From Myxococcota bacterium (GTDB taxonomy: Bacteria; Myxococcota_A; UBA9042; PHBI01; JAWLBL01), in NCBI GenBank assembly GCA_041687695.1, contig JAWLBL010000001.1, positions 291,461 through 355,460 of the forward strand: a stretch of 64,000 nt of DNA, in the 5' to 3' direction. The notes below the pieces were generated by a model. That model was not told where the DNA came from. It saw nothing but the letters and a program-made list of their open reading frames with translations, and ran no database searches. A program made the position numbers and the translations under genes. This document shows, in pieces, positions 26,300 through 49,428 of this stretch. The stretch's first letter is position 1. Each line of letters starts with the position of its first letter.

Positions 26300-29200
26300 A
26301 TGAAGTCTCGACACCTCAGCCGTCTTTGGGTGCAGACCGCGGCGTTCGGGCTCGCCGCCGTCGCCGCGCTGTCGCCCGGGCAGGCCCAGGCGCAGGACGC
26401 GTCCGACGCCGTCAAGCCCCTCGTCCTCATCCTGCTCGATACGTCGGGTTCGATGGAGTACGAGTCCGGCACGACGCTGTCGCCCAGCCAGGAGTTCACC
26501 GTCCCGCACTGCGAGGAGCCGACCGCGACCGCGCCGGACTTCGGCATCGGCGTCGGCAACTATCCGAAGTCGCGCCTCGTCGCGGCCAAGGAGGTGCTGA
26601 CCGGGACCTACGAGAACTACTGGTGCAAGTACGACTACCGCACCAACCCCGACTACGAGGACTTCGAGTACCCCATCCCGCACGTGCGGCCGTGCTCGTA
26701 CGACGTGGTGACTGGCCTCAGCAACTGCGACGAGCCGGCCCAGAAGTTCGACGGCCTGCTCGACGTCAAGCGCGACGACTTCAAGTTCGCGCTGATGACC
26801 TTCGACTCGCGCGAGAGCCTCGAGGCCAACGCCGAGGGCATGTACAGCTACGGCCCGGACACGGCGTTCGACATCAACCTGGGCATCCGAAACGAGGTCT
26901 GGGGCGAGCCCAACGACCCCAACGTATGGGGCACCGACGGCTGGTCGTTTTCGGACCAGCACCGCAGCGTGAACAACCGCGGGCAGCTCATCCCGCCGCC
27001 GCTCGCGGACACGTTCAACGACATCCGCGCCCAGAATCGGCTGATGCAGTACGAGGTCGGGACGACGGTGGGCTACTGGGGTACGCCCCTGTCGCCGATG
27101 CTCTCCGATGCCCGCTGGTTCCTGCAGAACCACGAGACCGTCAAGCCGTTCGACGTGAACACCGGCCTCGGTGACCCCTACATCAACTGCCGCGAGCGCG
27201 TCGTCATCCTCATCACGGACGGCCGCGCCAGCCAGGGCGAGGGCGTCGGAGGCTACGGCACCACGATGTCGGCCATCACGGCGCTCAAGAACACGCCGCC
27301 GACGCCGGTGCGCGTCTACGTCGTCGGGTTCAACCTGGCGACGCCCGACGTCAGCATGCTGGCCGACCTGTCGCCCGAAAACGGCGGCCCGGCCAACGGG
27401 GTGTACATCGTCGACTCGCCGCAGGATCTCGCCACGGCCCTGTCGGACATCTTCAACATCGTCATCTCGGACACGCGCAGCCGGTCGAACGTGACCTTCA
27501 CCAACGCGACCCAGTCGATGGTGGACCAGCAGTACCAGCTCAGCGCGGCCTTCCAGCCCGATCCGCTGGTGTCCAACAACCAGATCGGCTACCTGAACCA
27601 GACCGTCTACCGGTGCTCGGCCGAGTGCGGCAACGTCGGCGGCCCCAGCTGCGCCCGCGATCTGGTCCGCATCCACGACCGCCTGAACACCCAGACGGAC
27701 CGGACCCTCCTGACGGTCGTCGCGGGCCTCGTCGCGGCGCTGGACAACTCGCTCCTGGCGCTGGCGACGGACGATACGCTCATGGCCGAGCTCTTCGACG
27801 TCCCCCAGACGGGGCAGCTGCCGAAGCTGGATCCCGTGTCGATCGTCAAGACGGGCTCCTCGCTGCTCGATCTCATCATCAACACGGCCGACGACACGCT
27901 GGGAGACGCGTCCGACTATGCCGTGCAGTACGAGTACATGAAGCAGCTCATCAAGCTGATCCGCGCCGAGGACGGCTCGGTGCGGCAGGGGCGCAAGCTG
28001 GGCGGCATCGGGTACTCGACGCCGATCGTCCAGGAGCCGCCCGAGGTCGGCAAGTACCCGATCCGCAGCTGGAACCAGTACGCCACGACGGTCGACCAGG
28101 ACGTGAAGTACGCGCCGCAGTGCCGGCCCACGATGGCCTACGTGGGCACGCACGACGGGCAGATCCACGCCTTCCGCATCGACCGTCGCGGCCCGAGCGA
28201 GCTGTGCAAGGACCAGGCCGTCCCGGTCCAGGACGAGGACGACATGGGGCGCGAGCTCTGGTCGATCGTGCCGCAGCACCTGCTCAAGCGCTCGCACGCG
28301 CTGGCCTCGCAGGCCATCCACCTGATGAACGGGCAGCCGGTCGTCGCCGACGTGCTGCTGTCACGCAACGATCCCCTGACGGCCAACACGGTCAACGAGG
28401 CGGCCCAGTGGCGCAGCGTGCTGACCACGGGCTACGGCAACGGCGGGACCGGCTACATCGCCATCGACGTGACCCATCCGCTCGAGGGCGAGGACGTCTC
28501 GGTCCTGTGGGAGCTGGACCACGAGTCGCGCTGCTACCAGGGCAACTGCTACGCCCCGAACACGGGGAAGACGAACGACTTCAGCCGTCTGGGGCTGACC
28601 ACGGCCCGGCCGGCCTACGGGACGGCCTTCGTGAACGGCAAGGAGATCGCCATCGTCGTGCTGCCGGGCGGTGACACGCCCGAGAGCAGCTCGAACCCCG
28701 AGGCGGGCAAGGTCGTCTACGTCGCGGCCCTCAGCGACGGACGCAAGCTGGCCGAGTTCTCCAACGCCAGCGGCAACGTGGTCCGGATGGACGGCACGCC
28801 CGTGACCCTGCTGTCCCCGTTCACCGGCAGCCCGACGCTGTACTCGAACGTGCCGGGCGTGGTGACGACGCGCGGCTTCATCGGCGACGCCGGCGGGCGC
28901 CTGTGGCGCATCGACATGAAGAGCAGCGACCCCGACAACTGGCGGCTGCAGCTCTTCCACGACGCCTACGCGGCCGGCGGCGCGGTCGACGGGGCCACCC
29001 TGAGCGACCGCCAGCCGGTGTTCGGCGCGCCCGCCGTGGCCCTCGACGGCCCGTACGGCCACGTCGCGGTCGCCTATGGCACCGGCGCCATCGACTACCT
29101 CGCCAAGACGCCGAACTCGCGGTCGGTCGTCTACTCGGTCTCCGAGGTGACGCAGGTCGATGGCACCATCGACGTCCAGGAGAACTGGTCGAAGGTCTTC

Positions 29201-29704
29201 GAGCCGGGCGAGAAGCTCACCGGCGAGCCCACCATCTTCGCCCAGAAGGCGTACTTCACGACCTTCGTGGAGAACACGCTGGACCTGTGCGCGGCCGGCG
29301 GTGGCCGCCTGTATGGCGTCCACTTCACGCAACACGACTCGACGGCCACCAAGAAGGACAACACGGTCGCGGCCTTCGACGACGACGGCGACCCGACCAC
29401 GCTGTCCGTGGTCAAGTTCGTCAGCACGGGCCAGTCGGTCCCCTACGGCGTGCAGGTCGTCGAGCGCCCATCGTGCCTGCCCGACGGCACCGCGGGCGGC
29501 GGTGGCGGCTTGGCGAGCAGCACCGCTCCGCAGCGCGGCGCCCTCGAGCTGGTGGTCAACGTCGCGCAGGGCGACACGGGCTCGGCCAACACCATCCCGC
29601 CGGGCGTGGACGCCTCGACCATGGGCACCAAGACCCTCACCCACGCGCTCGCCGACTCTGGCGAGACCCTCCACTCGTCGGCCTGGGGCAATGTCCTTTA
29701 CTGA
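26300..29704 (+). CDS. pilY1: PilY1/PilC-type pilus tip adhesin with an N-terminal vWA domain
   Basis: Signal peptide (AQA), MIDAS DTSGSM, GTPL, ILITDG. C-terminal beta-propeller motifs: YVGTHDGQIHAF, ELWSIVP, GDAGGRLWRID, GEKLTGEP, YFTTF. Confidence 0.85.
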   Translation: MKSRHLSRLWVQTAAFGLAAVAALSPGQAQAQDASDAVKPLVLILLDTSGSMEYESGTTLSPSQEFTVPHCEEPTATAPDFGIGVGNYPKSRLVAAKEVLTGTYENYWCKYDYRTNPDYEDFEYPIPHVRPCSYDVVTGLSNCDEPAQKFDGLLDVKRDDFKFALMTFDSRESLEANAEGMYSYGPDTAFDINLGIRNEVWGEPNDPNVWGTDGWSFSDQHRSVNNRGQLIPPPLADTFNDIRAQNRLMQYEVGTTVGYWGTPLSPMLSDARWFLQNHETVKPFDVNTGLGDPYINCRERVVILITDGRASQGEGVGGYGTTMSAITALKNTPPTPVRVYVVGFNLATPDVSMLADLSPENGGPANGVYIVDSPQDLATALSDIFNIVISDTRSRSNVTFTNATQSMVDQQYQLSAAFQPDPLVSNNQIGYLNQTVYRCSAECGNVGGPSCARDLVRIHDRLNTQTDRTLLTVVAGLVAALDNSLLALATDDTLMAELFDVPQTGQLPKLDPVSIVKTGSSLLDLIINTADDTLGDASDYAVQYEYMKQLIKLIRAEDGSVRQGRKLGGIGYSTPIVQEPPEVGKYPIRSWNQYATTVDQDVKYAPQCRPTMAYVGTHDGQIHAFRIDRRGPSELCKDQAVPVQDEDDMGRELWSIVPQHLLKRSHALASQAIHLMNGQPVVADVLLSRNDPLTANTVNEAAQWRSVLTTGYGNGGTGYIAIDVTHPLEGEDVSVLWELDHESRCYQGNCYAPNTGKTNDFSRLGLTTARPAYGTAFVNGKEIAIVVLPGGDTPESSSNPEAGKVVYVAALSDGRKLAEFSNASGNVVRMDGTPVTLLSPFTGSPTLYSNVPGVVTTRGFIGDAGGRLWRIDMKSSDPDNWRLQLFHDAYAAGGAVDGATLSDRQPVFGAPAVALDGPYGHVAVAYGTGAIDYLAKTPNSRSVVYSVSEVTQVDGTIDVQENWSKVFEPGEKLTGEPTIFAQKAYFTTFVENTLDLCAAGGGRLYGVHFTQHDSTATKKDNTVAAFDDDGDPTTLSVVKFVSTGQSVPYGVQVVERPSCLPDGTAGGGGGLASSTAPQRGALELVVNVAQGDTGSANTIPPGVDASTMGTKTLTHALADSGETLHSSAWGNVLY

Positions 29705-30573: not shown

Positions 30574-31635
30574 ATGCGCACCGCTCGCCCGCTGAAGTCG
30601 CTCTTGCTCCAGGTGGCCCTCGCCCTCGTGTTCACCTTCGCCGTGGCTCCCGTAGCCCTGGCCTCGGACGACGCGCGCCTCGGCCTCGGCCTCAAGTCGG
30701 TCGTCTCGGGCAAGGAGCTGCCGGCCATCACCCTGGCCCCCGGCGAGGCGGTCAAGGCGCTGACGGTCAAGCTCGAGCGCGGGGACGGCAAGCGCCTCAC
30801 GCTCAAGGCGGCGGGCCTTCCGGCGGGGCGACCGAAGGTGCTGCCGATCGACCAGCCGAACGGGGTGTTCGCCTACCGGGCCGAGTTCCACGTCGTGTGG
30901 GGCGACAAGTCCACGTCGACGTTCACCACCGAGTTCAAGGCGACGCGGGTCGGCAAGCTCGAGCTTCGGATCGGCGCGGGCGACGTCGACCTCGAGGGGC
31001 GTCGCCTCACGTTCCAGATCACGAACCCGGCGGCCAGCGCCGAGCTGGTCATCCTGGGTGAGCGCGGCAGGGAGCTGGGGATCGTCCGCGAGTCCTGGGA
31101 GGACGCGCCCCCGGGCACGCCGCTGGAGCTGACGTGGGACGCGGTCGAGGGCGACATCGTCCGCATGGATCTCAAGGTGACGGACGTGGCGGGGTTCTGG
31201 GCGGGCATGCAGATCACGCCCTTCTCCATCGAGATCCCCCACGACGAGGTGGTCTTCGAGTCGGGGCAGGCGGCGGTGCGCGACAGCGAGGCGCCCAAGC
31301 TGCAGCGCACCATGGCGCACATCCAGGAGGCGCTGGCGAGGCACGGCACGTTGCTGCAGCTCAAGCTGTTCGTGGCCGGGTACACGGACACGGTGGGCGG
31401 CCGGGCCTCGAACCAGGAGCTGTCGACCCGCCGGGCGGCGGCCATCGCCGGATGGTTCCGCAAGAACGGCTTGAAGATCCCGATCTACTATCAGGGCTTC
31501 GGCGAAGACGCGCTGGCCAAGCCGACCCCGGACGAGACCGAGGAGCCGGCCAACCGGCGCGCGCTGTACATCCTGTCGAGCCAGCAGCCGGGGACCAGCG
31601 CGTCGGTGCCGCGCGGCGACTGGCGGAAGCTGTAG
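30574..31635 (+). CDS. Exported OmpA-family peptidoglycan-binding protein
   Basis: Signal peptide (ALA-S), beta-rich N-domain, C-terminal GYTDTVG..N..LS.RRA...GFGE...NRRA; GGAGG RBS. Confidence 0.88.
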   Translation: MRTARPLKSLLLQVALALVFTFAVAPVALASDDARLGLGLKSVVSGKELPAITLAPGEAVKALTVKLERGDGKRLTLKAAGLPAGRPKVLPIDQPNGVFAYRAEFHVVWGDKSTSTFTTEFKATRVGKLELRIGAGDVDLEGRRLTFQITNPAASAELVILGERGRELGIVRESWEDAPPGTPLELTWDAVEGDIVRMDLKVTDVAGFWAGMQITPFSIEIPHDEVVFESGQAAVRDSEAPKLQRTMAHIQEALARHGTLLQLKLFVAGYTDTVGGRASNQELSTRRAAAIAGWFRKNGLKIPIYYQGFGEDALAKPTPDETEEPANRRALYILSSQQPGTSASVPRGDWRKL

Positions 31636-31678
31636 TCGGTCCTTCGCGCGCGGCGAGGCGCCGCGCACGTCGCGTTCG

Positions 31679-33019
31679 TCACAGGGCGATGGGCGCGGTC
31701 GGGATGATGTACAGGGCGGTCGCCTGATCGGGGACCCCCTGCGCGTCGGTCACCCGGGCCGCGAAGAAGAACCCGGACAGCTTGATCTGCGTGAACGGGA
31801 TGGTGATCTCGACGGCCAGGCTGGTGTCCGTCACGGCGCCGCTGAGGGTGCCGTTGGCGGCCAGGGTCAGGCCGGTCGGCAGGCCCGACTTGGGGATGAA
31901 GGTCTTCACCAGGCCGGGGATGGGCTCCTCGGCCCAGGCGTAGGGCTTCTTGCCGCCCTTGGCCTGCAGCTTGGCGTTGTACGGCACCGGGATGCCGTCG
32001 ACGACCAGGATGAGCGGCAGCACGATGACCTTCGTGACGAAGAGGTCGATCTGCTGGTCGCCCAGGATCTCGAGGGGGGCGATGCTGACGGGGAGCTTGA
32101 GGGCCTTGCTGGCGGTCAGCGTGGGGTCGCCGTTGTCGAAGACCTTGGCCGTGAACTCGAAGGTGCCGTCGCCGGTCGGCGTGCCCGAGATGGTGCCGTC
32201 CGAGGCGAGCGACAGGCCGGGCGGGAGGGCGCCCGACGACAGGCCCCAAAACCAGGGCGCGGTGCCGCCGACGGCCTTCAGGGTCGTCTGGTAGGGCTCG
32301 CCCTCGAGGGCGAGCGGCAGGGGCGAGCCCGTGGTGATGTGCAGGCCGTGCTCGAGCACGACGAGGCTGAGGATCTCGGTGTCCTTGGTGCCGGCCGCGT
32401 CCAGGACGTCGGCGCGGAACGAGAAGGAGCCGACCGAGACGCTCGCCCCGGAGAGCACGCCGTCCGCCGCCAGGGTGATGCCCGGCGGCAGGTTGCCCTG
32501 TCCGACCGACCAGGTGTACGGCGGCGCTCCGCCGGTGGCCTCGAGCGTGAACGCGTAGGCGGCGCCCTCGAGGACCGGCGGCAGCTCGACGGTCTCGATG
32601 GTGAGCGGGCGCGGGACGCACTCGCCGTCGGCGCAGTCCTCGGCCTCGGCGCAGTCCGCGGCCGAGATGCAGCCCACGCAGACGCCCTCGAAGCAGGCGA
32701 GGCCCTCGGCGCAGTCCTCGAGTTCGAACGCGCTGCCGACGTCGTTGCACACCAGACGTTGGCCGCTCACGCAGCCAGCAACGCCCGGCGGGCACACCTT
32801 GGCGGGGGCGACCTCTTCGGCGGCGTCGGGGTCCGACGCGTCGGCCGCGTCATCTCCGGCGGTGACGTCGCCCCCCTTGGCGTCGACGTCGCCTTCGGCC
32901 CCGAGGTCGCCCGCCTCCGTGTCCGACTTGCCCGTGGCCGCGTCGTCGCTGCATGCTCCGAGCAGCACGAGCATCAGCCCCAGCCCCAACGTCCCTACCC
33001 TGCCGCAGACCCTCTTCAT
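31679..33019 (-). CDS. Lipoprotein with a Cys-rich segment and putative Ig (He_PIG-like) repeats
   Basis: Lipobox LGA-C; three repeats of GGxxPYxW...GxLPPGxxLxxDGxxSGxP. Confidence 0.8.
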   Translation of the reverse strand: MKRVCGRVGTLGLGLMLVLLGACSDDAATGKSDTEAGDLGAEGDVDAKGGDVTAGDDAADASDPDAAEEVAPAKVCPPGVAGCVSGQRLVCNDVGSAFELEDCAEGLACFEGVCVGCISAADCAEAEDCADGECVPRPLTIETVELPPVLEGAAYAFTLEATGGAPPYTWSVGQGNLPPGITLAADGVLSGASVSVGSFSFRADVLDAAGTKDTEILSLVVLEHGLHITTGSPLPLALEGEPYQTTLKAVGGTAPWFWGLSSGALPPGLSLASDGTISGTPTGDGTFEFTAKVFDNGDPTLTASKALKLPVSIAPLEILGDQQIDLFVTKVIVLPLILVVDGIPVPYNAKLQAKGGKKPYAWAEEPIPGLVKTFIPKSGLPTGLTLAANGTLSGAVTDTSLAVEITIPFTQIKLSGFFFAARVTDAQGVPDQATALYIIPTAPIAL

Positions 33020-33107
33020 CCGAGCCCTCCCTGGTGCGCGGCGGAGTATACTGAATTCGTCCGAAGAGGCCGCGTCTCATGCGACGCCTCTCGACGGGAG
33101 CCCCCCA

Positions 33108-33938
33108 ATGAAGCCCTCGCCCAAGCGCCTCGCCCGCAGCCTCGCCGCCCTCCCCCTGGGCCTCGCGCTCGCCCTGACCGCCTGCCCGCTGCTCGAGGAG
33201 CTCGAGCGCCGCGGCCTCGAGCCCGTCGCCGTCATCGACGACCTGACGCCCGAGGTCGAGGCCTCGGCCCTGCAGCTACGCCACGGCCCGACGCTGAACG
33301 AGCTGGCCGCCTACTACTGCCCGCGCCTGTCGGGCGACCCCCTGACCCGCGCCGCCTGCTCGCTGACCCTGGGCCCGGCGCCGCACCGCTCGCACATGGC
33401 CTTCGAGTTCGGCATCACCATCCGCGTCGCCAACCCGAACGAGGTCCCCATCCCCGCGCTCGACATCCTGCTGGCCCTCACGCTCTTCGACGCCCACGAG
33501 GCCGAGGCCCTCGGCGCCATCTGCCTCAGCCTGTGCGGCGCCGACGACCCCGAGTGCGACGGCACCCCCAAGCCGGGCGCCTGCGTCAGCACCCAGGACG
33601 ACATCCGCACCATCGACGACTTCATCGCGCGCCTGCCCGGGCTCATCGAAGACATCGCCAGCGGCAAGGCCGAGGAGGAGCTGCGTAAGTCGACCATCGC
33701 CGCCGGCGGCGACATCGTGCTCGACCTGGCCTTCGTCATGGGCATCGACCAGGCCCTGGGCGTCTTCGAGAAGACCGCCTGGGCCTACGTCGAGGATCTC
33801 CTCGCCGGACGCGACGCCTCGCTGGTCGTGCCGGTGTCCGCCGAGGGCAGCGTCTTCGTCCAGGTGCCCGCCCTGGGCCGCGTCGGCGTCAACTACGGCC
33901 CGCTGAAGACCACCTGGAACATCGAGGAGAGCCTCTGA
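33108..33938 (+). CDS. Hypothetical lipoprotein with a possible LEA_2/WHy-like domain
   Basis: MKPSPKRLARS...LTA-C lipobox; FGITIRVANPNEVPIP resembles the WHy 'NPN' motif; GGGAG RBS. Confidence 0.7.
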   Translation: MKPSPKRLARSLAALPLGLALALTACPLLEELERRGLEPVAVIDDLTPEVEASALQLRHGPTLNELAAYYCPRLSGDPLTRAACSLTLGPAPHRSHMAFEFGITIRVANPNEVPIPALDILLALTLFDAHEAEALGAICLSLCGADDPECDGTPKPGACVSTQDDIRTIDDFIARLPGLIEDIASGKAEEELRKSTIAAGGDIVLDLAFVMGIDQALGVFEKTAWAYVEDLLAGRDASLVVPVSAEGSVFVQVPALGRVGVNYGPLKTTWNIEESL

Positions 33939-33991: not shown

Positions 33992-36900
33992 TCAGTCGCA
34001 CACGGGGTTCGCCTGGCCCGGGGTGCCGGCCGGCGCCCCGTCCGCGGCGGGCCCGCCCGCGCACCAGGACGCGGGCAGGTCGTTGTCGGCGGCGTCGGTG
34101 GCGTCAGCCGACAGCGACAACGTCGTGAACGCCGGCACGCCCCAGCCGCTCTGGGTGTCCCAGGCCACGGCGTCGACCACGGCCTCGCCGCAGGTCAGGG
34201 CCAGCGAGTCGGCCGTGTTGGACAGCGCCAGGCCGCTCCAGACCGCGTCTGGGACGACGCCGGCCAGCGCCGCCGCGTCCGCGGTGCGAGCGAGCACCAC
34301 GGCCTCGCCCGGCCACACGAGGAAGGTGCCGGCCTCGACCGCCGGCAGGGTCCAACCCTCGCTGGGGGCGCTCGACAGCACGCAGCCGGCCAGGTCCAGC
34401 GGCGCGTCCGTCACGTTCGTCAGCTCGACCCACTCGCCGGTGGGATCGAGCGGGACGATCATCAGCTCGGTCAAGACGACCTCGCCCGCGGCGGGCGGGA
34501 GCGGGAAGTCGACGCACTCGCCCAGGGCGCAGCTGGCCCCGAGGGCGGCGCAGTCCTGGCCCGGCGCGGCCGGCCAGGTGCACGCGGCGGCGTCGCCATC
34601 GACGACACACGACGCCGGCCCGGTCACGTCGCCTACGAGGACGTCGTCCAGGCAGACCGTGCCCGGGTCGGCGCCGCACGGGTCTGGCCAGCAGGGGCTG
34701 TCGGTGGCCTCGACCAGCGGCGCCTCGACCGGGTCGTAGGCGGTCTCGGGATCCAGATCGCAGACCGTCCACGAGTGGCCGCCGTCGACGCTGACCCGGC
34801 CGGCCAGGGCCAGCGTTCCCTGTCCGCGCAAGCGGACCGAGCCCGCCCAGGCGTCCACGTCCTTCGCTTCGTCGGCCTCGGTCGCGTCCCAGTCGGCGAC
34901 CGGCGCGGCGTCCGCCCACTGCCACTGGCTGGAGGTCGCGGCGGTGCCGGCCGCGGCGACGCCGACCTGCACCAGGATGCTCTCGGCGGCGCTGTTGTCG
35001 GGGCCGGCGTCGGTCAAGCCGGCCTCGGTGAAGCGGACCTGGACCGCCACATCGGTCCCCGCGGGCGCCGTGAGGGTCGCCTCGCCCGCCACCCAGCAGG
35101 CGTCGACCGGCTCTACGTCGCCCGGGCACGGCGGGTTCGGGTCGCCGGGCGTGCCCGTGTGCAGGCCGACGGTGCCGACGCCGCCGCACCAGGCGCCGAG
35201 GTCGTCGTTGCGCTGGGCCGACAGGTGGAACGGGCTGAGCGCGTTCGACACGCCCGTCGCGAAGCTGAACTTGGACGTCCACGCGACCTGGTCGACGATC
35301 GCCCCGCCGCAGGTCAAGGTCACGCCGGGGCCCGTCTTGGCGATGGTGAGGCCCGAGCCCCACGAGTAGCTGGCCGGCAGGCCGCCGTTGGTCGTCGGGT
35401 CGGCGCTGGCCGCCAGGACGATGCGGGCGTCGACGCCGAGGACCAGCGCCTTGTTCAGCGTGTGCACCGACGTGCCCGAGGTCAGCAGGCACCCCTGCAG
35501 GTCGACCGGGTGCGTCGCGAGGTTGGTCACCTCGACCCACGGGGTCGCGCCCGCCTCGGGGGTGACGAGCAGCTCGGTGAAGGCGACCTCGCCAGCCAGC
35601 GGCGCGACGGCGGCCCCCGCGCAAGCCGCGTCGGCGCAGACCTGTCCCTGGGCCGCGCAGTCCACGGCGCTGGGCAGCCACTCGCACTCGAAGGCGTCGG
35701 CGGCGGTCGGCACGCAGGCGGCCTCGCCCGGAAAGGTCCACAAGGTGACGCCGTCCGGCTGGCAGGCGGGCGCCGGCGCGTCGGTGCAGGGGTCCGCCTC
35801 GCAGGGGTCGGCGACCACGGTGACTGCGGTGGCGTCGGCGGGGTCGAAGCCGTCGGCGGAGCCGGGATCGCGGTCGCACAGGGTCCAGGTGAGGCCACCA
35901 TCGCGGCTGGCGCGGGCTGCGGCGACGCGCTGGCCGACGGCCTCGAACGGGAGCGACAGGCCGGCCCAGGCGTCGACGCCGTCGAGATCCACCCAGCCGG
36001 TGGCCGGCTCGGCCGCGGTCCACTGCCAGCTGCCCGGGTCGGCGGCGTCGGCGGCCGGCGCGTGGCCGACCTCGACCTTCAGGGCGGCGGGGGTGTCGAC
36101 CCCGGGGGTGGCGTCGGTCAGGCCGGCCTCGAAGACGGTGACATCGACCCGCAGGGGGTGTCCGACGAAGCCGGTCGCCTGGGCAGGGCCGACCAGGACG
36201 CACAGGTCGACGGTGGTGTCCGGGACCGGGCAGGGGTTGTTGGGGGCGCCGGGCGTGCCCAGGTCGCCCGCGCCGTAGGGCGTCGAGGCGGGGCACCACG
36301 AGAACGGCGAGTCGTTGAGCGCCCCGTCGGTCTTGGTCGGATCGAGCGCCATCGCGACGCCGCTGGCGACGGGCCAGTCGACCGCGCCATAGCTGACCGA
36401 GTCGATGACCACGTCGTCGCAGGCGAGCGTGACCGAGTCGACGAAGTTGTCGAGCAGCATGGTCGCGTAGACGTAGTCGACCTCTACGCCGCCGTTGTTG
36501 GCGGCCTCGCCCGAAAAGCCCAGGACGAAGCGGGCGCCCGGCTCTAGCCCGATGGGGCCGTCCTCGGAGGCGATCAGCACGAGGTCGGTCGCGTCGTCGA
36601 CCAGGACGCAGTCGGTCAGGTTCAGCAGGGCGTCGGTGGTGTTGACCAGCTCGATCCACTCGCCGTGCGGGTCGTTGACGGCCTGCGGGTTCACCATCAG
36701 CTCGGCGATGACGATGTCGCCGGGCAGCGGCAGGGTCAGGCCGGCGCCGGGCTCGCAGCTGGGCGTGCAGCCGTCGTAGGGGTTGTCGTTGCCGTCGTCG
36801 CAGGTCTCGCCGCCGTCGACGACGCCGTCGCCGCAATGGGCCGCCACGCAGTCGGTGCGGCAGGCGTCGGGCTCGGTGTCGCTGTTGGCCGCGCCGTCGT

Positions 36901-37270
36901 CGCAGTCCTCGCCGTCGTCGAGGTGGCCGTCGCCGCACTCGGGTGTGGGCGGCAGCTCGGGGCCGGCGTCGTCGGCGTCGGTGGCGGCGTCCGGCGCGTC
37001 GGCGGCCGCGTCGGCGTCACCGGTGGCGTCGGAAGTCGTCTGGTCGGCCGGGACGTCCGGGTCGGCATCGAAGCCCGCGTCGTCCACGTCGGGGGCGGCG
37101 TCGGCGCCCGCGTCGGGGTCGGCGTCGGGCGGGGGGGTGGCGTCGGCGTCGCTCGAGGCGTCGCCGCTGACGTCGGCGTCGGGGGCGGTGGAGGCGTCGT
37201 CGCCGCATCCGGGAGCGATCGCGAGCGCGAGGGCCGTGACGAAGACGAAGCGTAGAGCCGACCAGGACAT
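33992..37270 (-). CDS. Lipoprotein with three lamin-tail domains, myxobacterial disulfide repeats and a duplicated beta domain
   Basis: Lipobox-like APG-C, Asp/Ala linker, CGDGxxDxGExCDDG x2, LTD motifs (IVIAELMVNP/GEWIELVN x3, each ending GTPGxxNxxC), and two copies of EAGLTD...WQW...DGGxxWTxCD. Alternative starts extend to 37327. Confidence 0.85.
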   Translation of the reverse strand: MSWSALRFVFVTALALAIAPGCGDDASTAPDADVSGDASSDADATPPPDADPDAGADAAPDVDDAGFDADPDVPADQTTSDATGDADAAADAPDAATDADDAGPELPPTPECGDGHLDDGEDCDDGAANSDTEPDACRTDCVAAHCGDGVVDGGETCDDGNDNPYDGCTPSCEPGAGLTLPLPGDIVIAELMVNPQAVNDPHGEWIELVNTTDALLNLTDCVLVDDATDLVLIASEDGPIGLEPGARFVLGFSGEAANNGGVEVDYVYATMLLDNFVDSVTLACDDVVIDSVSYGAVDWPVASGVAMALDPTKTDGALNDSPFSWCPASTPYGAGDLGTPGAPNNPCPVPDTTVDLCVLVGPAQATGFVGHPLRVDVTVFEAGLTDATPGVDTPAALKVEVGHAPAADAADPGSWQWTAAEPATGWVDLDGVDAWAGLSLPFEAVGQRVAAARASRDGGLTWTLCDRDPGSADGFDPADATAVTVVADPCEADPCTDAPAPACQPDGVTLWTFPGEAACVPTAADAFECEWLPSAVDCAAQGQVCADAACAGAAVAPLAGEVAFTELLVTPEAGATPWVEVTNLATHPVDLQGCLLTSGTSVHTLNKALVLGVDARIVLAASADPTTNGGLPASYSWGSGLTIAKTGPGVTLTCGGAIVDQVAWTSKFSFATGVSNALSPFHLSAQRNDDLGAWCGGVGTVGLHTGTPGDPNPPCPGDVEPVDACWVAGEATLTAPAGTDVAVQVRFTEAGLTDAGPDNSAAESILVQVGVAAAGTAATSSQWQWADAAPVADWDATEADEAKDVDAWAGSVRLRGQGTLALAGRVSVDGGHSWTVCDLDPETAYDPVEAPLVEATDSPCWPDPCGADPGTVCLDDVLVGDVTGPASCVVDGDAAACTWPAAPGQDCAALGASCALGECVDFPLPPAAGEVVLTELMIVPLDPTGEWVELTNVTDAPLDLAGCVLSSAPSEGWTLPAVEAGTFLVWPGEAVVLARTADAAALAGVVPDAVWSGLALSNTADSLALTCGEAVVDAVAWDTQSGWGVPAFTTLSLSADATDAADNDLPASWCAGGPAADGAPAGTPGQANPVCD

Positions 37271-37354
37271 GGGCTGAGGACCTCCGGACGAGGTCGGGAC
37301 CATAGTCAGCGGGTCCGGCGGACGCAAGGTGCGGCGGCGGGGCCTCGGCGGGCG

Positions 37355-40279
37355 TCAGGGGCCGTCGAGCAGCGCCTCGAGATAGGCCGAGGGGCCGAGG
37401 TAGACGTCCTGGGTCTGGCAGCTCAGGCCGGCGCCCTCGAAGGCGCCCTGCCCGTCGCCGACCTTCCAGGCGCCGGAGGCGTCGAGCTCGAGCGTGGACC
37501 AGCGCAGCTGCTTGGCGATGGGCGGGGGCAGGCGGAAGCGAAGCGACCAGGCGCCGTCGGGGTCGACCGCGGGGTCGAGGTCGAGCAGCAGCGAGTGGTA
37601 GAGCGCCGGCCCGGGGCCGAGCAGGACGTCCAGGCCGGGCACGGGCGAGCCGAAGGTGACACGGACGCGGCTGGGGAAGGGGATGGTGGACCAGGGCACC
37701 AGCGGAGCGGCGGCGCGGTCGGTCAGCACCTGCTGGACCTCGACGGTGACCTGGGGGCCCGCGTTGGTGGCGCACCAGCGGCGCTGGATGAGGGAGGTGG
37801 CCGCGAAGACGTCCTTGGGGATGGCGGCCGTGTCGACCATTTCGCGCTCGGCGGCGGTCAGGGCCGGCGGGGCGCGGTCCAGCACGCGCACCTGCTTGAG
37901 GACCAGGCGGTCGGGCCCGGTCTGGGCCGGCGAGGTCATGGGCCAGGCGCCCGCCATGCGCTTCCACTCGAGGTCGAGGACCAGAGACGAGGCGCGCTGG
38001 GCCTTGGGGAGCGCGGCGTTGGCCTCGGCGAGCCAGAGGTCGGCGAGGGCGCCGATGTGCTGGAAGAGGAAGGCGAGCTCGGCGTCGCTGGCGACCTCGG
38101 CGGGGTCGGGGCTGGCGCTCTGCAGGCGGTCGATGCCCGCTGGCGTCACGCGCGAGACCTCGGGCAGCGCGTCGACGCCGGGCGGCGGGTTGGTCACGCT
38201 GAGGGCGCCGTGCTGGGCGTTGACCACCATCTCGCGGACGGGCGCGCCGACGAGCGGCTGGGCGACGGAGAAGGTGATGACGCCGTTGGCCTGCTCGTGG
38301 AGGTCCGTGTAGGTCGGGTGGACCAGCACCGCCATGTGGCCGCTGAGGTGATCGATGCCGGCGAGGCGCCGCTCCTCGAAGGCCTCGAAGGTCCAGTACG
38401 ACGCCCAGGTGCGCTTGACGGCCCAGGCGACGCTGCGCTCGCGCAGCTTGGCGCTCGCGAGCTGCTCGGGGAACAGGTAGCCGGTGTTCGAGTCGTACAG
38501 GCCCGCGCCGTTGAAGCCCTCGACGTCCTCGGCGGTGGACGACGAGCGGAAGCGGATGCCCTGCTCGGGCTGGAAGTCGCCGTAGCGCGCCAGCAGGGCC
38601 TCGCGGAGCGCGGCCTCGAACACCGGGTCGATGGCTTGCCGCTCGATGAGCCCCTTCAGGCCGCCTTGACGGCCGAGGTAGCCGATCCAGGTGCTGGCCG
38701 GGAACTGCTTGGGGAAGGTCTCGTCGAGCCACTTCAGGTCGGCCGGGCTGCCGGCGTGCTGCTCGCGGAAGGTCTCGCCGCCCTCGAGGGTGACGAAGCG
38801 GACGCGGCGGCCCTCGTCGTCCTTCCTGGAGAACTCGGGGTGAGCCAGCAGCTCCACGATCGTGGCACGCACCGGCTCGAGGTGCTCGGCGTAGGGGCGG
38901 ATCGTCAGGCACAGCGGCGCGCGCGGGAGCTCGAGCGCGGGCACGTCCTGGAAGGCCATCATCCCGGCGCACTTGCCGCCGATGAGGGGGATGAGCCCGC
39001 GGGACTCGGCGAGCGAACCTTCGGTCAGGTCGACCAGGGAGGGCGCCGTCGCGGGGTCGACCGGGGCGATGGTCCGGGCGCCCTGCCCTCTCTTGGCGAG
39101 CCAGGTCTTGTACTGGTCGCTGGTCAGCTCCTTCCAGCGCGCCGCGGCGTCGCGCAGCGCGAGGACGACGGGTTTGCCGTTGAGGGACCAGTCCTTCAGG
39201 CGCGGATCGTAGGCCGAGCCGCCGATGTAGGCGTTGGGCGTGCCGCGGCTCTTGGCCAGCAGGTTCAGGTGCGCGAGCGGCGTCTGCTGGGTCGAGGTGA
39301 CGATGCCCGCGACGGGGGGCAGGTAGTCGGGGACGCCCCCGAGGACCGCGATGTCGCTGGGGCCGAAGGACGAGCCGCCGGTCTCGAGGACCTCTCGCAG
39401 CTTCACGAAGCCCGCCGTGATGCCCTCGTTGTAGATGATGACCTCGCCCGGAATGACGAGATCCTCGGGCAGCAGCACTCGGTCCTTAAGCGGGCCGTCG
39501 CCGGCGCGGAGCTTGGCCGCGAGGCCGCGCTGGTAGGGCGACGAGCGCGCGAGCCAGTGCAGCTGGTCGCGGAGCTCGGGTGGCAGGCCCGCCTGGACGC
39601 GCTCGTCGTACACGAGCAGCTCGGCCTCGGTGGCCCTGTCCGGGTATTCGATCTCGAAGGCCCACAGCGCCTCGGGGCGCGGGCGCTCGGGGGCCGGCGC
39701 GAAGTACAGGAGCGACCCGGCGCCGAAGAAGCGCGGCTCAGCCTGCCACTTCCACTGTCCGGGAGCGGTCTGGACCTGCCGCCCACCGAGGACGGAGGCG
39801 TAGAAGTCCGGCGAGTACAGCCGCGACTCGTGCCAACGCAGGTCGAGCGGGGGCGCGCCGAGGGCACGGACGGCGTCGTAGAGGTGGGCGATGGAGTCGG
39901 CCCCGAGGTCGAGCGGCGCCTCGTCCCAGCCAGCGATGGCGACGCCGCTGAGCAGGCGGAAGAAGTACCACTCGTCGTGCAGCGCGTAGAAGGCGGGGTC
40001 GAGGAAGTGCAGCTCGCCCGTGGGCTCGCCGAAGCCGGTGAAGACGAACTTGGCCTGGGCCGGGCCGGCCGCCGGGGGGCCCGCGAAGGCGTGGAAGTCC
40101 GAGGGGCTCGCGAACCCGGCGACCGTGTGTCCGACGAAGTCCGGCGGGTCGACGTCAGACGGCGTGTCGGTGACCTCGGCGTCGAGGTTCACGTCGGCGC
40201 CCTGGTCGGCGTCGCCGCAGGCGGCGAGGCTCGCGACGACGGCGCAACAGAGCGAGGCTACGGCGCGGCGCCAGGTCAT
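37355..40279 (-). CDS. Lipoprotein with a phospho-His swivel domain and a PEP/pyruvate-binding (PPDK_N) ATP-grasp domain; putative dikinase
   Basis: Lipobox LAA-C; AGIVTSTQQTPLAHLNLLAKSRGTPN; IGGKCAG; RSSSTAEDVEGFNGAGLYDS; AVKRTWAS; MAVLVH; ANGV; LDLEWK; LKQVR. Confidence 0.85.
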   Translation of the reverse strand: MTWRRAVASLCCAVVASLAACGDADQGADVNLDAEVTDTPSDVDPPDFVGHTVAGFASPSDFHAFAGPPAAGPAQAKFVFTGFGEPTGELHFLDPAFYALHDEWYFFRLLSGVAIAGWDEAPLDLGADSIAHLYDAVRALGAPPLDLRWHESRLYSPDFYASVLGGRQVQTAPGQWKWQAEPRFFGAGSLLYFAPAPERPRPEALWAFEIEYPDRATEAELLVYDERVQAGLPPELRDQLHWLARSSPYQRGLAAKLRAGDGPLKDRVLLPEDLVIPGEVIIYNEGITAGFVKLREVLETGGSSFGPSDIAVLGGVPDYLPPVAGIVTSTQQTPLAHLNLLAKSRGTPNAYIGGSAYDPRLKDWSLNGKPVVLALRDAAARWKELTSDQYKTWLAKRGQGARTIAPVDPATAPSLVDLTEGSLAESRGLIPLIGGKCAGMMAFQDVPALELPRAPLCLTIRPYAEHLEPVRATIVELLAHPEFSRKDDEGRRVRFVTLEGGETFREQHAGSPADLKWLDETFPKQFPASTWIGYLGRQGGLKGLIERQAIDPVFEAALREALLARYGDFQPEQGIRFRSSSTAEDVEGFNGAGLYDSNTGYLFPEQLASAKLRERSVAWAVKRTWASYWTFEAFEERRLAGIDHLSGHMAVLVHPTYTDLHEQANGVITFSVAQPLVGAPVREMVVNAQHGALSVTNPPPGVDALPEVSRVTPAGIDRLQSASPDPAEVASDAELAFLFQHIGALADLWLAEANAALPKAQRASSLVLDLEWKRMAGAWPMTSPAQTGPDRLVLKQVRVLDRAPPALTAAEREMVDTAAIPKDVFAATSLIQRRWCATNAGPQVTVEVQQVLTDRAAAPLVPWSTIPFPSRVRVTFGSPVPGLDVLLGPGPALYHSLLLDLDPAVDPDGAWSLRFRLPPPIAKQLRWSTLELDASGAWKVGDGQGAFEGAGLSCQTQDVYLGPSAYLEALLDGP

Positions 40280-40367
40280 GCGTCGGGGGCTCCTGCGGTC
40301 GAGCGCAAGGAGTAGCAGACGCCGACGGTCGGGGAAAATGGCGGTCGCGCGGCGGAGCCCGGGGACC

Positions 40368-41219
40368 TCAGCTGGCCAGCTTCTGCTCGTCGGGCATGGT
40401 GGTCGTCACGACGCGCATGCGCCAGTCGATGGCGACGATCTCGCCCTGCTTCATGGGCAGCCAGACGTTCTCGCCCTGCAGCGGCTCGCTGGAGACGATG
40501 AGGTGGTTGACGAAGCCGGACTTGCTGGCGTGCTCGCACTCGAAGGCCAGCGCGGGGCAGCTGTCGCGGTCCGAGCAGCGGGTCTTGTAGCTGGACCAGT
40601 AGAGGTCCTTGCCGCCGTGGATGGCCGCGAGGGTGGTGCCGTTGGTCACCAGCAGGTTCAGCAGGGCGGACGACGGGGCATCGTCGGTGTCGGCGACGGC
40701 GCGGACGCGGGCCACCGTCTCGGTCAGGGCCTGCACGACGGTGTCGGCCCCGAAGCGGCGGTCGAGCGGCCCGTGGCGGCTCAGCTCGCTGAGCAGCAGG
40801 AAGAAGATGACCTCGCTGTCGGTGTCGCCGAGGACGAAGCGGCGCAGGCGCGGCGCCACGAGATCCATCAGGGCGTCGCGGCAGCGGTCGAACTTCGGGA
40901 TGTCGCCGTTGTGGGCGAAGACCCAGCGGCCGTGCTGGAACGGGTGGGTGTTGAGGACCGAGTTGACGCCGACGGTCGCCTTGCGGATGTGGGCGACGAC
41001 CGTCTCGCTGGCGACGATGCCGCTGACGCGCCGGAAGAGCGTGTCGTTCAGGGCCGTCGAGGCGCTCTTGGTGAGGTGCGGGCAGCCGTCGACGTAGTAG
41101 GCCACGCCCCACCCGTCGGGGTGGTTGCAGCTCTGCACCGCCAGGGCGTTGTCCGCGTCGAGGAGCGACCGGTGGACCTGGCTGGGGATGACGCTACGGA
41201 AACCGAAGAGGCGACACAT
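40368..41219 (-). CDS. Class II glutamine amidotransferase (YafJ/EgtC-like Ntn hydrolase)
   Basis: MCRLFG (catalytic Cys2), HPDGWG, AHIRKAT, NTHPF, FAHNG, GDTDSE, SSEPL. Confidence 0.92.
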   Translation of the reverse strand: MCRLFGFRSVIPSQVHRSLLDADNALAVQSCNHPDGWGVAYYVDGCPHLTKSASTALNDTLFRRVSGIVASETVVAHIRKATVGVNSVLNTHPFQHGRWVFAHNGDIPKFDRCRDALMDLVAPRLRRFVLGDTDSEVIFFLLLSELSRHGPLDRRFGADTVVQALTETVARVRAVADTDDAPSSALLNLLVTNGTTLAAIHGGKDLYWSSYKTRCSDRDSCPALAFECEHASKSGFVNHLIVSSEPLQGENVWLPMKQGEIVAIDWRMRVVTTTMPDEQKLAS

Positions 41220-45307: not shown

Positions 45308-46234
45308 TCACCCCTGGACGCCCGGGCCGCGCCGACCCGCCTCGCGCGCGCGCCGCACCAGGGAGACGACCTCCTCGACGACCGTGTCGACCGAGCGGCC
45401 GGTGGTCTCGACGCGCGCGTGGGCCTGCCCGTACAGCGGCTCGCGCGCGGCGAGCATGGCCTCGAGCTGCGAGTAGGCTTGGGGGTTGCGCCGCATGGGC
45501 CGATCGTCGCCCTGCGCGATGACCCGCTCCCAATGATCGCGGGCGTCGGCGCGCAGCCAGACGGTCAGCGCACCCGCCCGGAGCAGGCGCCACGCGTCGC
45601 GGTGGGTGACCAGCGAGCCGCCCGTCGCGAGGACGGCGGGGCGCCCCTCGTCCAGGAAGGCCTCGAGGACGTCCCGCTCGAGCTGCCGGTAGTGGGGCTC
45701 GCCGTGGATGGCGAAGATCTCGGCCAACGAGAGGCCGGCGACCTCTTCGATCCGCTGGTCCAGCTCGACGAAGGGGAACCCCAGCACGCGGGCGACGCGC
45801 CGGCCCACGGTCGACTTGCCGGCGCCGCGGACGCCGAGCAGGGCCACGACGCCGGGGACCGGATCGCCGAGGGTCGCGTCGAGGGCGGCCTCGACCCGCG
45901 CGAGGGTGACCACGTCGAGGTCCGACAGGCGCGCGACGAGGCGCTGAAGGCGCGCCCGGTGCGGGTCGAGCGCGGCCGGCGCCGGGTAGGTCGCCTGGGG
46001 TTCGGCGGCGACGAGGGAGCGCTCGGGCTCGCCGAGCAGCGCCTCGAGCGGCAGCTCGAGGGCGGCGCACAGCTCCGACAGGCGCGCGATCGAGATGTTG
46101 CCCTGCCCGCTCTCGAGCTGGCCGATGAACCGGACCGACAGGCCGGAGGTGGCGGCCAGGTCGCGGAGGGTCTGCCCGCGCGCGAGGCGGGCCGAGCGCA
46201 CGCGGTGTCCCAGGCGGGTGAGCAGCGTAGACAT
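45308..46234 (-). CDS. boxR: BoxR/BzdR-type regulator (XRE HTH plus shikimate-kinase-like benzoyl-CoA sensor)
   Basis: LGHRVRSARLARGQTLRDLA...LESGQGNIS HTH; GVRGAGKSTVG P-loop; ERVIAQGDDRP; divergent from boxC. Confidence 0.88.
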   Translation of the reverse strand: MSTLLTRLGHRVRSARLARGQTLRDLAATSGLSVRFIGQLESGQGNISIARLSELCAALELPLEALLGEPERSLVAAEPQATYPAPAALDPHRARLQRLVARLSDLDVVTLARVEAALDATLGDPVPGVVALLGVRGAGKSTVGRRVARVLGFPFVELDQRIEEVAGLSLAEIFAIHGEPHYRQLERDVLEAFLDEGRPAVLATGGSLVTHRDAWRLLRAGALTVWLRADARDHWERVIAQGDDRPMRRNPQAYSQLEAMLAAREPLYGQAHARVETTGRSVDTVVEEVVSLVRRAREAGRRGPGVQG

Positions 46235-46238
46235 GGGG

Positions 46239-46283
46239 TGCAGTATAGTGCGCTTCGGTTTCGACGCAAGGCAGTATGCTGCT
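46239..46283. promoter_or_regulatory. Two BzdR/BoxR-type operator-like boxes
   Basis: TGCA-GTATAG-TGCG (46239-46252) and GGCA-GTATGC-TGCT (46270-46283): direct repeat GCAGTATnnTGC, 31 bp apart. Confidence 0.55.
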
Positions 46284-46299
46284 TGCATCGACGCCGCGG

Positions 46300-46313
46300 T
46301 TGATCTAGATCAA
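46300..46313. promoter_or_regulatory. FNR/CRP-family binding site
   Basis: TTGAT-CTAG-ATCAA is a perfect FNR consensus palindrome, 35 bp upstream of the boxC ATG. Confidence 0.75.
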
Positions 46314-46348
46314 GGCCCACCCTGTTCCCCCTGCCCAGCGAGTGGCCC

Positions 46349-48013
46349 ATGGCAAGCGAGCACAGCCCCCGCCCCGATCTGACCTTCGAGCGCCACCCCG
46401 ACACCTATCGGCACTGGCGCCTGACCGTGGACGGCGACGTCGCCACCCTGGTGATGGACGTGGACGAGGGGGGCGCGGTCGACGGCCGGACCGAGCTGGT
46501 CCTCAACAGCTACGACATCGGCGTCGACATCGAGCTGGCCGACGCCATCCGGCGCCTGCGCTTCGAGCACCCCCAGGTCCGGGCGTGCGTCGTGCGCAGC
46601 GGCAAGGAGCGCATCTTCTGCGCCGGCGCGAACATCCGGGTGCTGGCCGCCTCGACGCACGCGCACAAGGTCAACTTCTGCAAGTTCACCAACGAGACGC
46701 GCCTCGAGCTCGAGGACGCCTCCGCGGTCAGCGGCCTGAAGTTCCTGGCGGCGGTGGGCGGCACGGCCTCGGGCGGCGGGTACGAGCTGGCCATCGCCTG
46801 CGACGAGATCCTGCTGGTCGACGACCGCAGCTCGGCCGTCAGCCTTCCCGAGGTGCCGCTGCTGGGCGTGCTGCCCGGGACCGGGGGCCTGACGCGCGTG
46901 GTCGACAAGCGCAAGGTGCGACGCGACCGCGCGGACTGGTTCTCGACCATCGCCGAGGGCATCAAGGGCAAGCGCGCCGTCGAGTGGAACCTGGTCGACG
47001 CCATCGCGCCCCTGTCGCGCTTCGACGCCGCGGTGGCCGAGCGGGCGCGCCGGCTGGCCGACTCGGTGGCCGGCGACAAGCCCAGCGAGGGCATCCGGCT
47101 GCAGCCGCTGCAGCCCGAGATCGCCGAGGCGCGGTGGACCTACCGCTACGTCGACGTGGCGATCGAAGCCGAGCAGCGCACGGCGACGATCACGGTGGCG
47201 GCGCCCGAGAGCGTCGGGCCCGAAGCGCCCGAGGGCATCCGGGCCGCCGGTGGGGACTGGTGGCCCCTGCGCGCCTTCCGAGAGCTGGACGACGCGCTGT
47301 GCCGCCTGCGCTTCAACGCCGAGGAGGTCGGCACCGTCGTGTTGAAGACGCGGGGCGACCTGGACACCGTCCTCGCCGTCGACGACGTGATGGCGCAGCA
47401 CCAGGGCGACTGGCTGGTCGCCGAGACGCGCCACTTCATCAAGCGCACGCTCAAGCGGCTGGATCTCACCGCGCGCAGCCTGTTCGCGGTGGTCGAGCAG
47501 GGCTCGTGCTTCGCGGGGACGCTGCTGGAGCTGGCGTTGGCGGCCGACCGGACCTACATGCTGGCCGACCCTGACGAAGGCGTCGCCGTGGCGGTGAGCG
47601 CCGCCAACTTCGACGGGACCTACCCGATGTCCAACGGGCTGACGCGGCTCGAGACGCGCTTTCTGGGCGCGCCCGAGGCCGTGGGACGCCTGCGCGAGCG
47701 CCTGGGCGAGCGGCTGGTGACCGAGGACGCCGACGAGCTGGGCCTGGTGACCGACGCGCCGGACGATCTCGACTGGGAGGACACGGTCCGGGTGGCGCTC
47801 GAGGAGCGCGCCAGCCTGTCGCCGGACGCGCTGACGGGCATGGAGGCGAACCTGCGCTTCGCCGGCCCGGAGACCCTCGAGACCAAGATCTTCGGGCGCC
47901 TGAGCGCCTGGCAGAACTGGATCTTCATCCGCCCCAACGCAACCGGCGAGCAGGGCGCCCTGACCCTCTACGGACACCCGCAGCGGCCGGTCTTCGACTG
48001 GCGGAGGACCTGA
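46349..48013 (+). CDS. boxC: 2,3-epoxybenzoyl-CoA dihydrolase
   Basis: LNSYDIGVDIELADA, FCAGANI, KVNFCKFTNETR, GGGYELA, LTGMEANLRFAGPETLETKIFGRLSAWQNWIF. Confidence 0.96.
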   Translation: MASEHSPRPDLTFERHPDTYRHWRLTVDGDVATLVMDVDEGGAVDGRTELVLNSYDIGVDIELADAIRRLRFEHPQVRACVVRSGKERIFCAGANIRVLAASTHAHKVNFCKFTNETRLELEDASAVSGLKFLAAVGGTASGGGYELAIACDEILLVDDRSSAVSLPEVPLLGVLPGTGGLTRVVDKRKVRRDRADWFSTIAEGIKGKRAVEWNLVDAIAPLSRFDAAVAERARRLADSVAGDKPSEGIRLQPLQPEIAEARWTYRYVDVAIEAEQRTATITVAAPESVGPEAPEGIRAAGGDWWPLRAFRELDDALCRLRFNAEEVGTVVLKTRGDLDTVLAVDDVMAQHQGDWLVAETRHFIKRTLKRLDLTARSLFAVVEQGSCFAGTLLELALAADRTYMLADPDEGVAVAVSAANFDGTYPMSNGLTRLETRFLGAPEAVGRLRERLGERLVTEDADELGLVTDAPDDLDWEDTVRVALEERASLSPDALTGMEANLRFAGPETLETKIFGRLSAWQNWIFIRPNATGEQGALTLYGHPQRPVFDWRRT

Positions 48014-48015
48014 GC

Positions 48016-49428
<1,413 letters not shown>

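Follow-up and report, generated by a model that had tools for sequence, protein, structure and literature searches.

A predicted lipid-anchored histidine-relay dikinase family that tracks a VTC polyphosphate polymerase and DUF4956 gene module

Overview

The dikinase P0001 is encoded in a stretch of 64,000 nucleotides from a Myxococcota bacterium (contig JAWLBL010000001.1), which was analysed as a whole and is called the window here. Its family tracks a module of VTC polyphosphate polymerase, DUF4956, HlyD and TolC genes, together with lamin-tail-domain (LTD) and CotH genes. P0001 is predicted to be a lipid-anchored, extracytoplasmic protein, and its sequence predicts a His-relay enzyme that looks catalytically intact and carries an export signal. 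We favour, at a probability of roughly 45%, an envelope His-relay kinase that would turn ATP into AMP and Pi while phosphorylating an acceptor. The features of the locus are as follows.

37355..40279, minus strand: dikinase gene P0001 (clade A), a 974-aa lipoprotein ORF
40290..40294, minus strand: Shine-Dalgarno-like AGGAG, 10 nt 5' of the ATG, read from the sequence
40217..40279, minus strand: signal peptide of predicted type II (aa 1-20), followed by Cys21 as the putative lipid anchor, from a conserved Cys column and a rule-based lipobox
40139..40216, minus strand: acidic flexible tether (aa 22-47), from low pLDDT and length variation among homologues
39449..40138, minus strand: N-terminal alpha/beta domain (aa 48-277), with K77, H101, R183, G188 and D214 conserved; putative second active site
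39122..39448, minus strand: swivel phosphohistidine domain (aa 278-386), with the His337 codon at 39269-39271
37877..39049, minus strand: ATP-grasp (PPDK_N) of the PEPS/RPH type (aa 411-801), with K436, R578, S597, E771, Q796 and R798
37358..37867, minus strand: beta-rich domain at the clade-A C-terminus (aa 805-974), in which Cys836 and Cys954 are conserved
33992..37327, minus strand: lipoprotein with three LTD domains, co-oriented and 3' of the dikinase; likely start 37271, PF00932 E 2e-28

Export signal and domain architecture

The N-terminus of P0001 consists of a basic MTWRR, a hydrophobic core and then LAA-C21, and it was scored by our own lipobox rule, not by SignalP. In an alignment of 120 clade-A rows (P0001 and the best 119 of 405 homologues), the Cys21 column holds Cys in 111 rows and the rule fires on 109, most of the misses being N-truncated gene calls. 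As controls, the rule fired on 287 of 1,501 ORFs (19%) from 12 contigs of the same genome and on none of 240 internal stretches. The initial annotation, made from the letters alone, had noticed this lipoprotein signal, and it was borne out. In the P0001 model pLDDT falls below 50 at aa 19-37, and the length of the tether varies among homologues.

P0001 has an unmatched N-terminal domain, then the swivel His domain and then a PEPS/RPH-type ATP-grasp. His337 is kept in 120 of the 120 aligned proteins, and a wide fold search with the predicted model confirmed the swivel fold. The ATP-grasp is nearest to RPH and PEPS, not to PPDK, and the Lys, Arg, Thr/Ser, Glu, Gln and Arg set is all present. K22, R117 and T136 of RPH, which according to the accessible text of PMC4844700 are needed for its first half-reaction, map onto K436, R578 and S597. 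Thus the proposal of a His-swivel motif followed by a full PPDK_N ATP-grasp held. The Pfam expectation attached to it held in part: PPDK_N (PF01326) was found at 432-672 (E 1.3e-8) with the His before it, but this was the only Pfam match in P0001 and PF00391 was not among its matches. NCBIfam models for PEPS and RPH gave about 20 bits on P0001 against cut-offs of 600-1,700 (TIGR01418, 22 bits against 740; NF041857, 20.8 bits against 999). The pyruvate/PEP-binding barrel, whose absence had also been pointed out, had no Pfam match in P0001, and the predicted model has a 170-aa beta-rich domain at its C-terminus.

Both terminal domains had been described as unlike known ones, and our searches agree. 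In the N-terminal domain, H101 is invariant in 29 of 29 cross-clade fragments, and K77, R183, G188 and D214 are kept in at least 90%. This region (aa 48-277, with K77, H101, R183 and D214) may be the acceptor site. No fold match to it appeared among the top 50 rows of a wide VIA search or of Foldseek, where the swivel domain filled the rows; the two domains were folded jointly, and the lack of a match does not prove that the fold is new. The RPH structure 5hv1 aligned over the swivel and ATP-grasp parts only. For the C-terminal domain (aa 805-974), Pfam and PDB sequence searches gave no match, and MHC-like Foldseek rows were dismissed (rmsd about 20). C836 is present in 116 and C954 in 115 of the 120 aligned clade-A proteins, and a disulfide between them is possible.

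Family size, paralogues and fusions

A profile of the N-terminal and swivel domains matched 3,050 clusters at 50% identity (E <=1e-3), and 1,133 at 1e-30. Among its best 150 matches were 127 new proteins, 98 with a lipobox, 14 with another hydrophobic start and 15 with neither. Named carriers are mostly Myxococcota, and also Acidimicrobiia and Flavobacteriales. Databases label members as 'PEP/pyruvate-binding domain-containing protein' or 'pyruvate, water dikinase', and the anatomy predicted from their sequences contradicts these labels. We found no published description of an exported dikinase family in a search that covered sources other than subscription journals. The family stands as undescribed so far as that search reached. 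P0001, far from being an isolated oddity, falls within one clade of this large family.

The same genome holds two further paralogues, both with a lipobox, on C29 (718 aa) and C7 (about 750 aa). The C29 type (clade B) had 2,699 homologues among 8,000 candidates, with a lipobox in 96 of 120. The C7 protein (L002:8914-11166, G000:C7) is a third, divergent lipoprotein, with no conserved neighbours seen. This genome also encodes separate enzymes of the PEPS, PPDK and RPH types, and PF00391 is found in a fourth gene.

Fusion partners in relatives are extracellular modules: LTD, FN3, cadherin-like, Calx-beta, FG-GAP and dockerin. LTD-dikinase fusions occur in L058, L081 and five representatives. A search for fusions longer than 1,257 aa gave three matches. 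Giant proteins of 2,000-3,200 aa (P0321, P0351, P0242 and P0243) carry FN3, Calx-beta or cadherin-like domains, and P0321 and P0351 have two dikinase units apiece. Clade-A members also occur in Acidimicrobiia and other Actinomycetota (L025, L027, L042-L044, L050, L062, L065, L073, L074 and L187). Most of them begin with a lipobox-like stretch and have a shortened C-terminal domain. They are nested among myxobacterial rows of the tree and are a possible case of transfer.

Gene neighbourhood

A survey of the neighbourhood of homologues had been suggested, and it covered 75 clade-A and 85 clade-B loci. Across 75 clade-A loci the LTD lipoprotein recurs, but no other specific neighbour does: there was no conserved operon, and only that lipoprotein and generic Ser/Thr kinases were recurrent. 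The LTD lipoprotein is also a neighbour at L004 and L005, and an LTD gene lies directly 5' of the dikinase in L075 and L219. Directly upstream of the dikinase in the window is a class II glutamine amidotransferase (40368-41219, minus strand; EgtC-like below the cut-off), which was rejected as a conserved partner because it does not recur beside homologues.

Elsewhere in the window, genes for an OmpA-domain protein, a He_PIG-repeat lipoprotein and an unannotated lipoprotein-like protein (30574-33938) converge on the LTD gene, and the last of these is syntenic in L004. A 1,134-aa exported protein without a Pfam match (26300-29704, plus strand) presumably resembles PilY1. Regulator, enoyl-CoA hydratase-like and PaaA-like genes (45308-49428, plus strand) belong to what we take to be a benzoyl-CoA (box) pathway. 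At clade-B loci, an unannotated lipoprotein without a Pfam family adjoins the dikinase in 56 of 85 (for example L001:2649-6054, G000:C29) and may be its partner or substrate. SMP-30-like lipoproteins are often found there as well.

Association with VTC, DUF4956 and CotH

We sampled 201 genomes of the phylum and found the dikinase family in 73, VTC in 94 and CotH in 102. VTC was present in 63 of the 73 dikinase genomes vs 31 of the 128 others, so that 10 dikinase genomes showed no VTC and 31 VTC genomes had no dikinase. For clade A the figures were 27 of 28 genomes vs 67 of 173 others, with CotH in 26 of the 28. Within the class, VTC was found in 22 of 23 clade-A genomes vs 8 of 15 others, and among CotH-positive genomes in 60 of 67 with the dikinase vs 22 of 35 without it.

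Since related genomes are not independent, p-values for co-occurrence come out too strong, and we gave physical linkage more weight. Among the 150 matches listed out of 219, 11 dikinase-VTC pairs in 9 genomes lay less than 10 kb apart vs a rough expectation of about 0.7. VTC and DUF4956 adjoin 7 of 85 clade-B loci (about 0.13 expected) vs 1 of 75 clade-A loci. These seven clade-B loci range from 44 to 66% GC and have several layouts. In G121 a run of VTC, DUF4956, HlyD-phytase-like, outer-membrane efflux and LTD genes, all in one orientation, ends with the clade-A orthologue. The source genome has its VTC-DUF4956-HlyD-efflux run 95 kb from the P0001 gene, so there the link between dikinase and VTC is indirect.

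That run (G000:C1:233070-237980; L166:9070-13982) encodes the only VTC of the genome, a DUF4956 protein, an HlyD protein fused to a phytase-like propeller and an outer-membrane efflux protein. About 4 kb from it (G000:C1:224060-228810; L166:62-4809) are genes for a TLC-like carrier (E 9.7e-7), an Omp85 protein and an unannotated lipoprotein. Eight CotH-family genes were found in the source genome, all of them outside the window. In Gram-positives, CotH-VTC-DUF4956 genes adjoin Pel clusters, and the accessible text of the two papers reporting this gives them no function (10.1101/768473; 10.1101/2024.04.20.589940).

A cytosolic sister clade in Streptomyces

A cytosolic clade lacking a signal occurs in Streptomyces and was present in 46 of 401 genomes searched. 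It is homologous to the exported family over its full length (hhalign 99.9%). A tree of 29 rows, with PEPS and RPH as its root, places it as the sister group of the exported clades; three clade-A rows of this tree are shortened, and re-rooting may have moved its support labels. The K/H/R/D set of the N-terminal domain is common to both. In most of the loci examined the dikinase lies with a PAS regulator, an ATP-grasp ligase and an MFS gene, and no VTC was seen there (L083:8919-15227, L084, L085, L185, L186 and L220-L231).

This cassette resembles the tal cluster for phosphoramidon/talopeptin, in which TalE, a PEPS-like kinase, is described in the accessible text as phosphorylating the amine of a Leu-Trp dipeptide (PMC6482885). 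In both, an ATP-grasp ligase and an MFS transporter accompany a PEPS-like kinase, and tagged TalE (79 kDa) is close in size to the Streptomyces dikinase of about 670 aa. The likeness was drawn from the description of TalE, not from its sequence or domain order. No glycosyltransferase was seen in the Streptomyces loci (12 by eye on crude gene calls, two plasmid loci by annotation), and the TalE cloning primers had no match in loci from L171 on. P0001 itself differs from TalE in being predicted to be exported and in having no ligase neighbour. The orphan cassette, which the cytosolic branch marks in about one in nine of the genomes searched, is a candidate source of an N-phosphorylated dipeptide. 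Since the sister clade has these N-domain residues as part of a tal-like cassette, the domain would most simply hold an acceptor.

Proposed reaction and alternatives

The established chemistry of RPH and PEPS turns ATP, water and an acceptor into AMP, Pi and phospho-acceptor. In P0001, pyrophosphate from ATP would be placed on His337 and the gamma phosphate then shed; the swivel domain would swing to the N-terminal domain, where an envelope acceptor, probably a protein or peptide rather than a glucan, would receive the beta phosphate. The dikinase would be the likely phosphoryl-transfer arm of the VTC-polyphosphate/CotH module, with the VTC-DUF4956-HlyD-TolC genes supplying phosphate or energy outside the cytoplasm. 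Our preference for forward transfer comes from the cytosolic sister clade, which retains these residues within a small-molecule cassette. An exported dikinase with a substrate other than pyruvate had been suggested from the start, and the conserved lipobox, the catalytic set, the swivel fold, the extracellular fusion partners and the separate PEPS and PPDK genes all support it. The suggested supply of ATP by lysed prey need not be assumed: Acidimicrobiia and Flavobacteriales also have relatives of the dikinase, and the context points to the polyphosphate/CotH module.

Several points weigh against forward transfer. Direct VTC linkage lies mostly in other clades, the N-terminal domain lacks a structural match among the top fold-search rows, and every phosphate transferred outside the cell would use up two anhydride bonds, a high cost. 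It also requires outside ATP, yet TLC-type carriers do not track the family: as an ATP source they were rejected for lack of co-occurrence (17 of 73 dikinase genomes vs 22 of 128 others, 2 of 28 for clade A), in a search insensitive enough to miss the TLC-like gene of the source genome.

The outside-ATP problem disappears if the enzyme runs in reverse, which we consider possible but unlikely. VTC-DUF4956, with HlyD and TolC, would export polyphosphate, the N-terminal domain would load His337, and the ATP-grasp would pass phosphate or pyrophosphate to AMP. The operon links and co-occurrence of the dikinase with VTC and CotH, the basic conserved residues of the N-terminal domain and the 3-4 predicted membrane helices of DUF4956 are consistent with this. 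Moving phosphate from polyphosphate to AMP involves little net energy change when a single anhydride replaces another. Simply running a water dikinase backwards, with Pi and a monophosphate donor, would be uphill. The Streptomyces sister clade has the same N-domain residues, and no VTC was seen with its small-molecule cassette; 22 of the 82 genomes with VTC and CotH have no dikinase found. Polyphosphate export by bacterial VTC is also unproven: the accessible part of one paper suggests that the polymer stays cytoplasmic (10.1101/2024.04.20.589940). A 2026 preprint, in its accessible part, describes PPK-independent extracellular polyphosphate in Bacillus cereus, which is said to lack VTC4 (PMC13484657). 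It is conceivable, and we hold it tentatively, that exported polyphosphate charges phospho-His and then adenine nucleotides (ADP/ATP) for CotH-type ecto-kinases at the cell surface. Gene context and the energy problem are better accounted for by reversal than by forward transfer, but reversal requires two unproven steps and seems doubtful as a whole.

Water might instead be the final acceptor, so that ATP from prey or detritus yields AMP and two Pi for phosphorus scavenging. Uncoupled ATP pyrophosphatase activity is described for RPH (PMC4844700, accessible text), and alkaline phosphatase (L108), metallophosphoesterase (L094) and phytase-like propellers occur as neighbours. Hydrolysis, however, needs neither a swivel domain nor a conserved second site, and the dikinase is linked with a polymerase rather than with uptake systems, which makes such an ecto-nucleotidase improbable.

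More doubtful still is a bacterial glucan, water dikinase acting on surface or environmental polysaccharide. The order of His and then ATP-grasp is shared with GWD (PMC13666283, accessible text), and this part of the likeness noted initially is real. GWD1_pHisD matches 7 of 29 family fragments (weakly, best E 5.4e-4) vs 3 of 29 for PF00391; an Atlas score of 0.77 links aa 45-280 to a GWD1_pHisD cluster, which below 0.9 is a lead only; and the Pel clusters that adjoin VTC, CotH and DUF4956 genes in Gram-positives (10.1101/768473, accessible text) are polysaccharide clusters. The glucan substrate, however, is unsupported: Pfam found no carbohydrate-binding module in P0001 or in the scanned homologues and fusions, PF22973 (the GWD-type phosphohistidine domain) had no match in P0001 or its genome, and no glycan genes recur beside the 75 clade-A loci.

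Finally, it is very improbable that the start was mis-called and the enzyme is cytoplasmic, or that the protein is an inactive remnant: the lipobox rule does fire on 19% of control ORFs, but it fires on 109/120, 96/120 and 98/127 proteins of the family sets, and the ribosome site is present, the Cys pairs are conserved and the catalytic residues are invariant. Our probabilities for these five readings leave a remainder unallocated.

Comparison with known systems

ATP is thought to be scarce in the bacterial envelope, and to our knowledge every His-relay dikinase works in the cytoplasm or in plastids. A family that numbers thousands of predicted exported proteins, and whose putative substrate domain had no fold match, would imply phosphoanhydride chemistry in the envelope. 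The VTC/CotH link bears on the role of bacterial VTC polymerases and on the power source of exported kinases, and the family may help to explain how phosphorylation outside the bacterial cytoplasm is powered. It is also a candidate bacterial relative of the starch dikinases.

P0001 shares with PEP synthase (PDB 2ols) and PPDK the ATP-grasp residue set and the swivel with its catalytic His, but it has no pyruvate barrel, its His domain precedes the ATP-grasp, and it is predicted to be exported. GWD and PWD of plants and algae probably share with P0001 the GAGLY-type motif, in place of the AGQQ of PEPS and RPH. They likewise have the His domain N-terminal to the nucleotide domain, and relatives of P0001 match GWD1_pHisD weakly, whereas P0001 is a bacterial lipoprotein without a starch-binding module (CBM45 or CBM20) and, as far as tested, has another N-terminal domain. 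The accessible text of two GWD papers and one review mentions no bacterial relatives. RPH (PDB 5hv1; Stogios 2016, PMC4844700, accessible text) is ordered ATP-grasp, substrate domain, His, and P0001 reverses this to putative substrate domain, His, ATP-grasp; P0001 also has a lipoprotein signal and scores far below the RPH NCBIfam cut-offs.

The dikinase family lies in the same neighbourhoods as the CotH-VTC-DUF4956 set (Whitfield, 10.1101/768473; 10.1101/2024.04.20.589940), with LTD partners in common. Both CotH and the dikinase are candidate exported phosphotransferases with no known ATP source, but CotH is protein-kinase-like, and its papers, in their accessible text, mention no dikinase and propose no polyphosphate export. 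P0001 is predicted to work like RPH or GWD, yet it lacks defining features of PEPS, PPDK, RPH and GWD/PWD, and its family possibly sits within a new kind of system.
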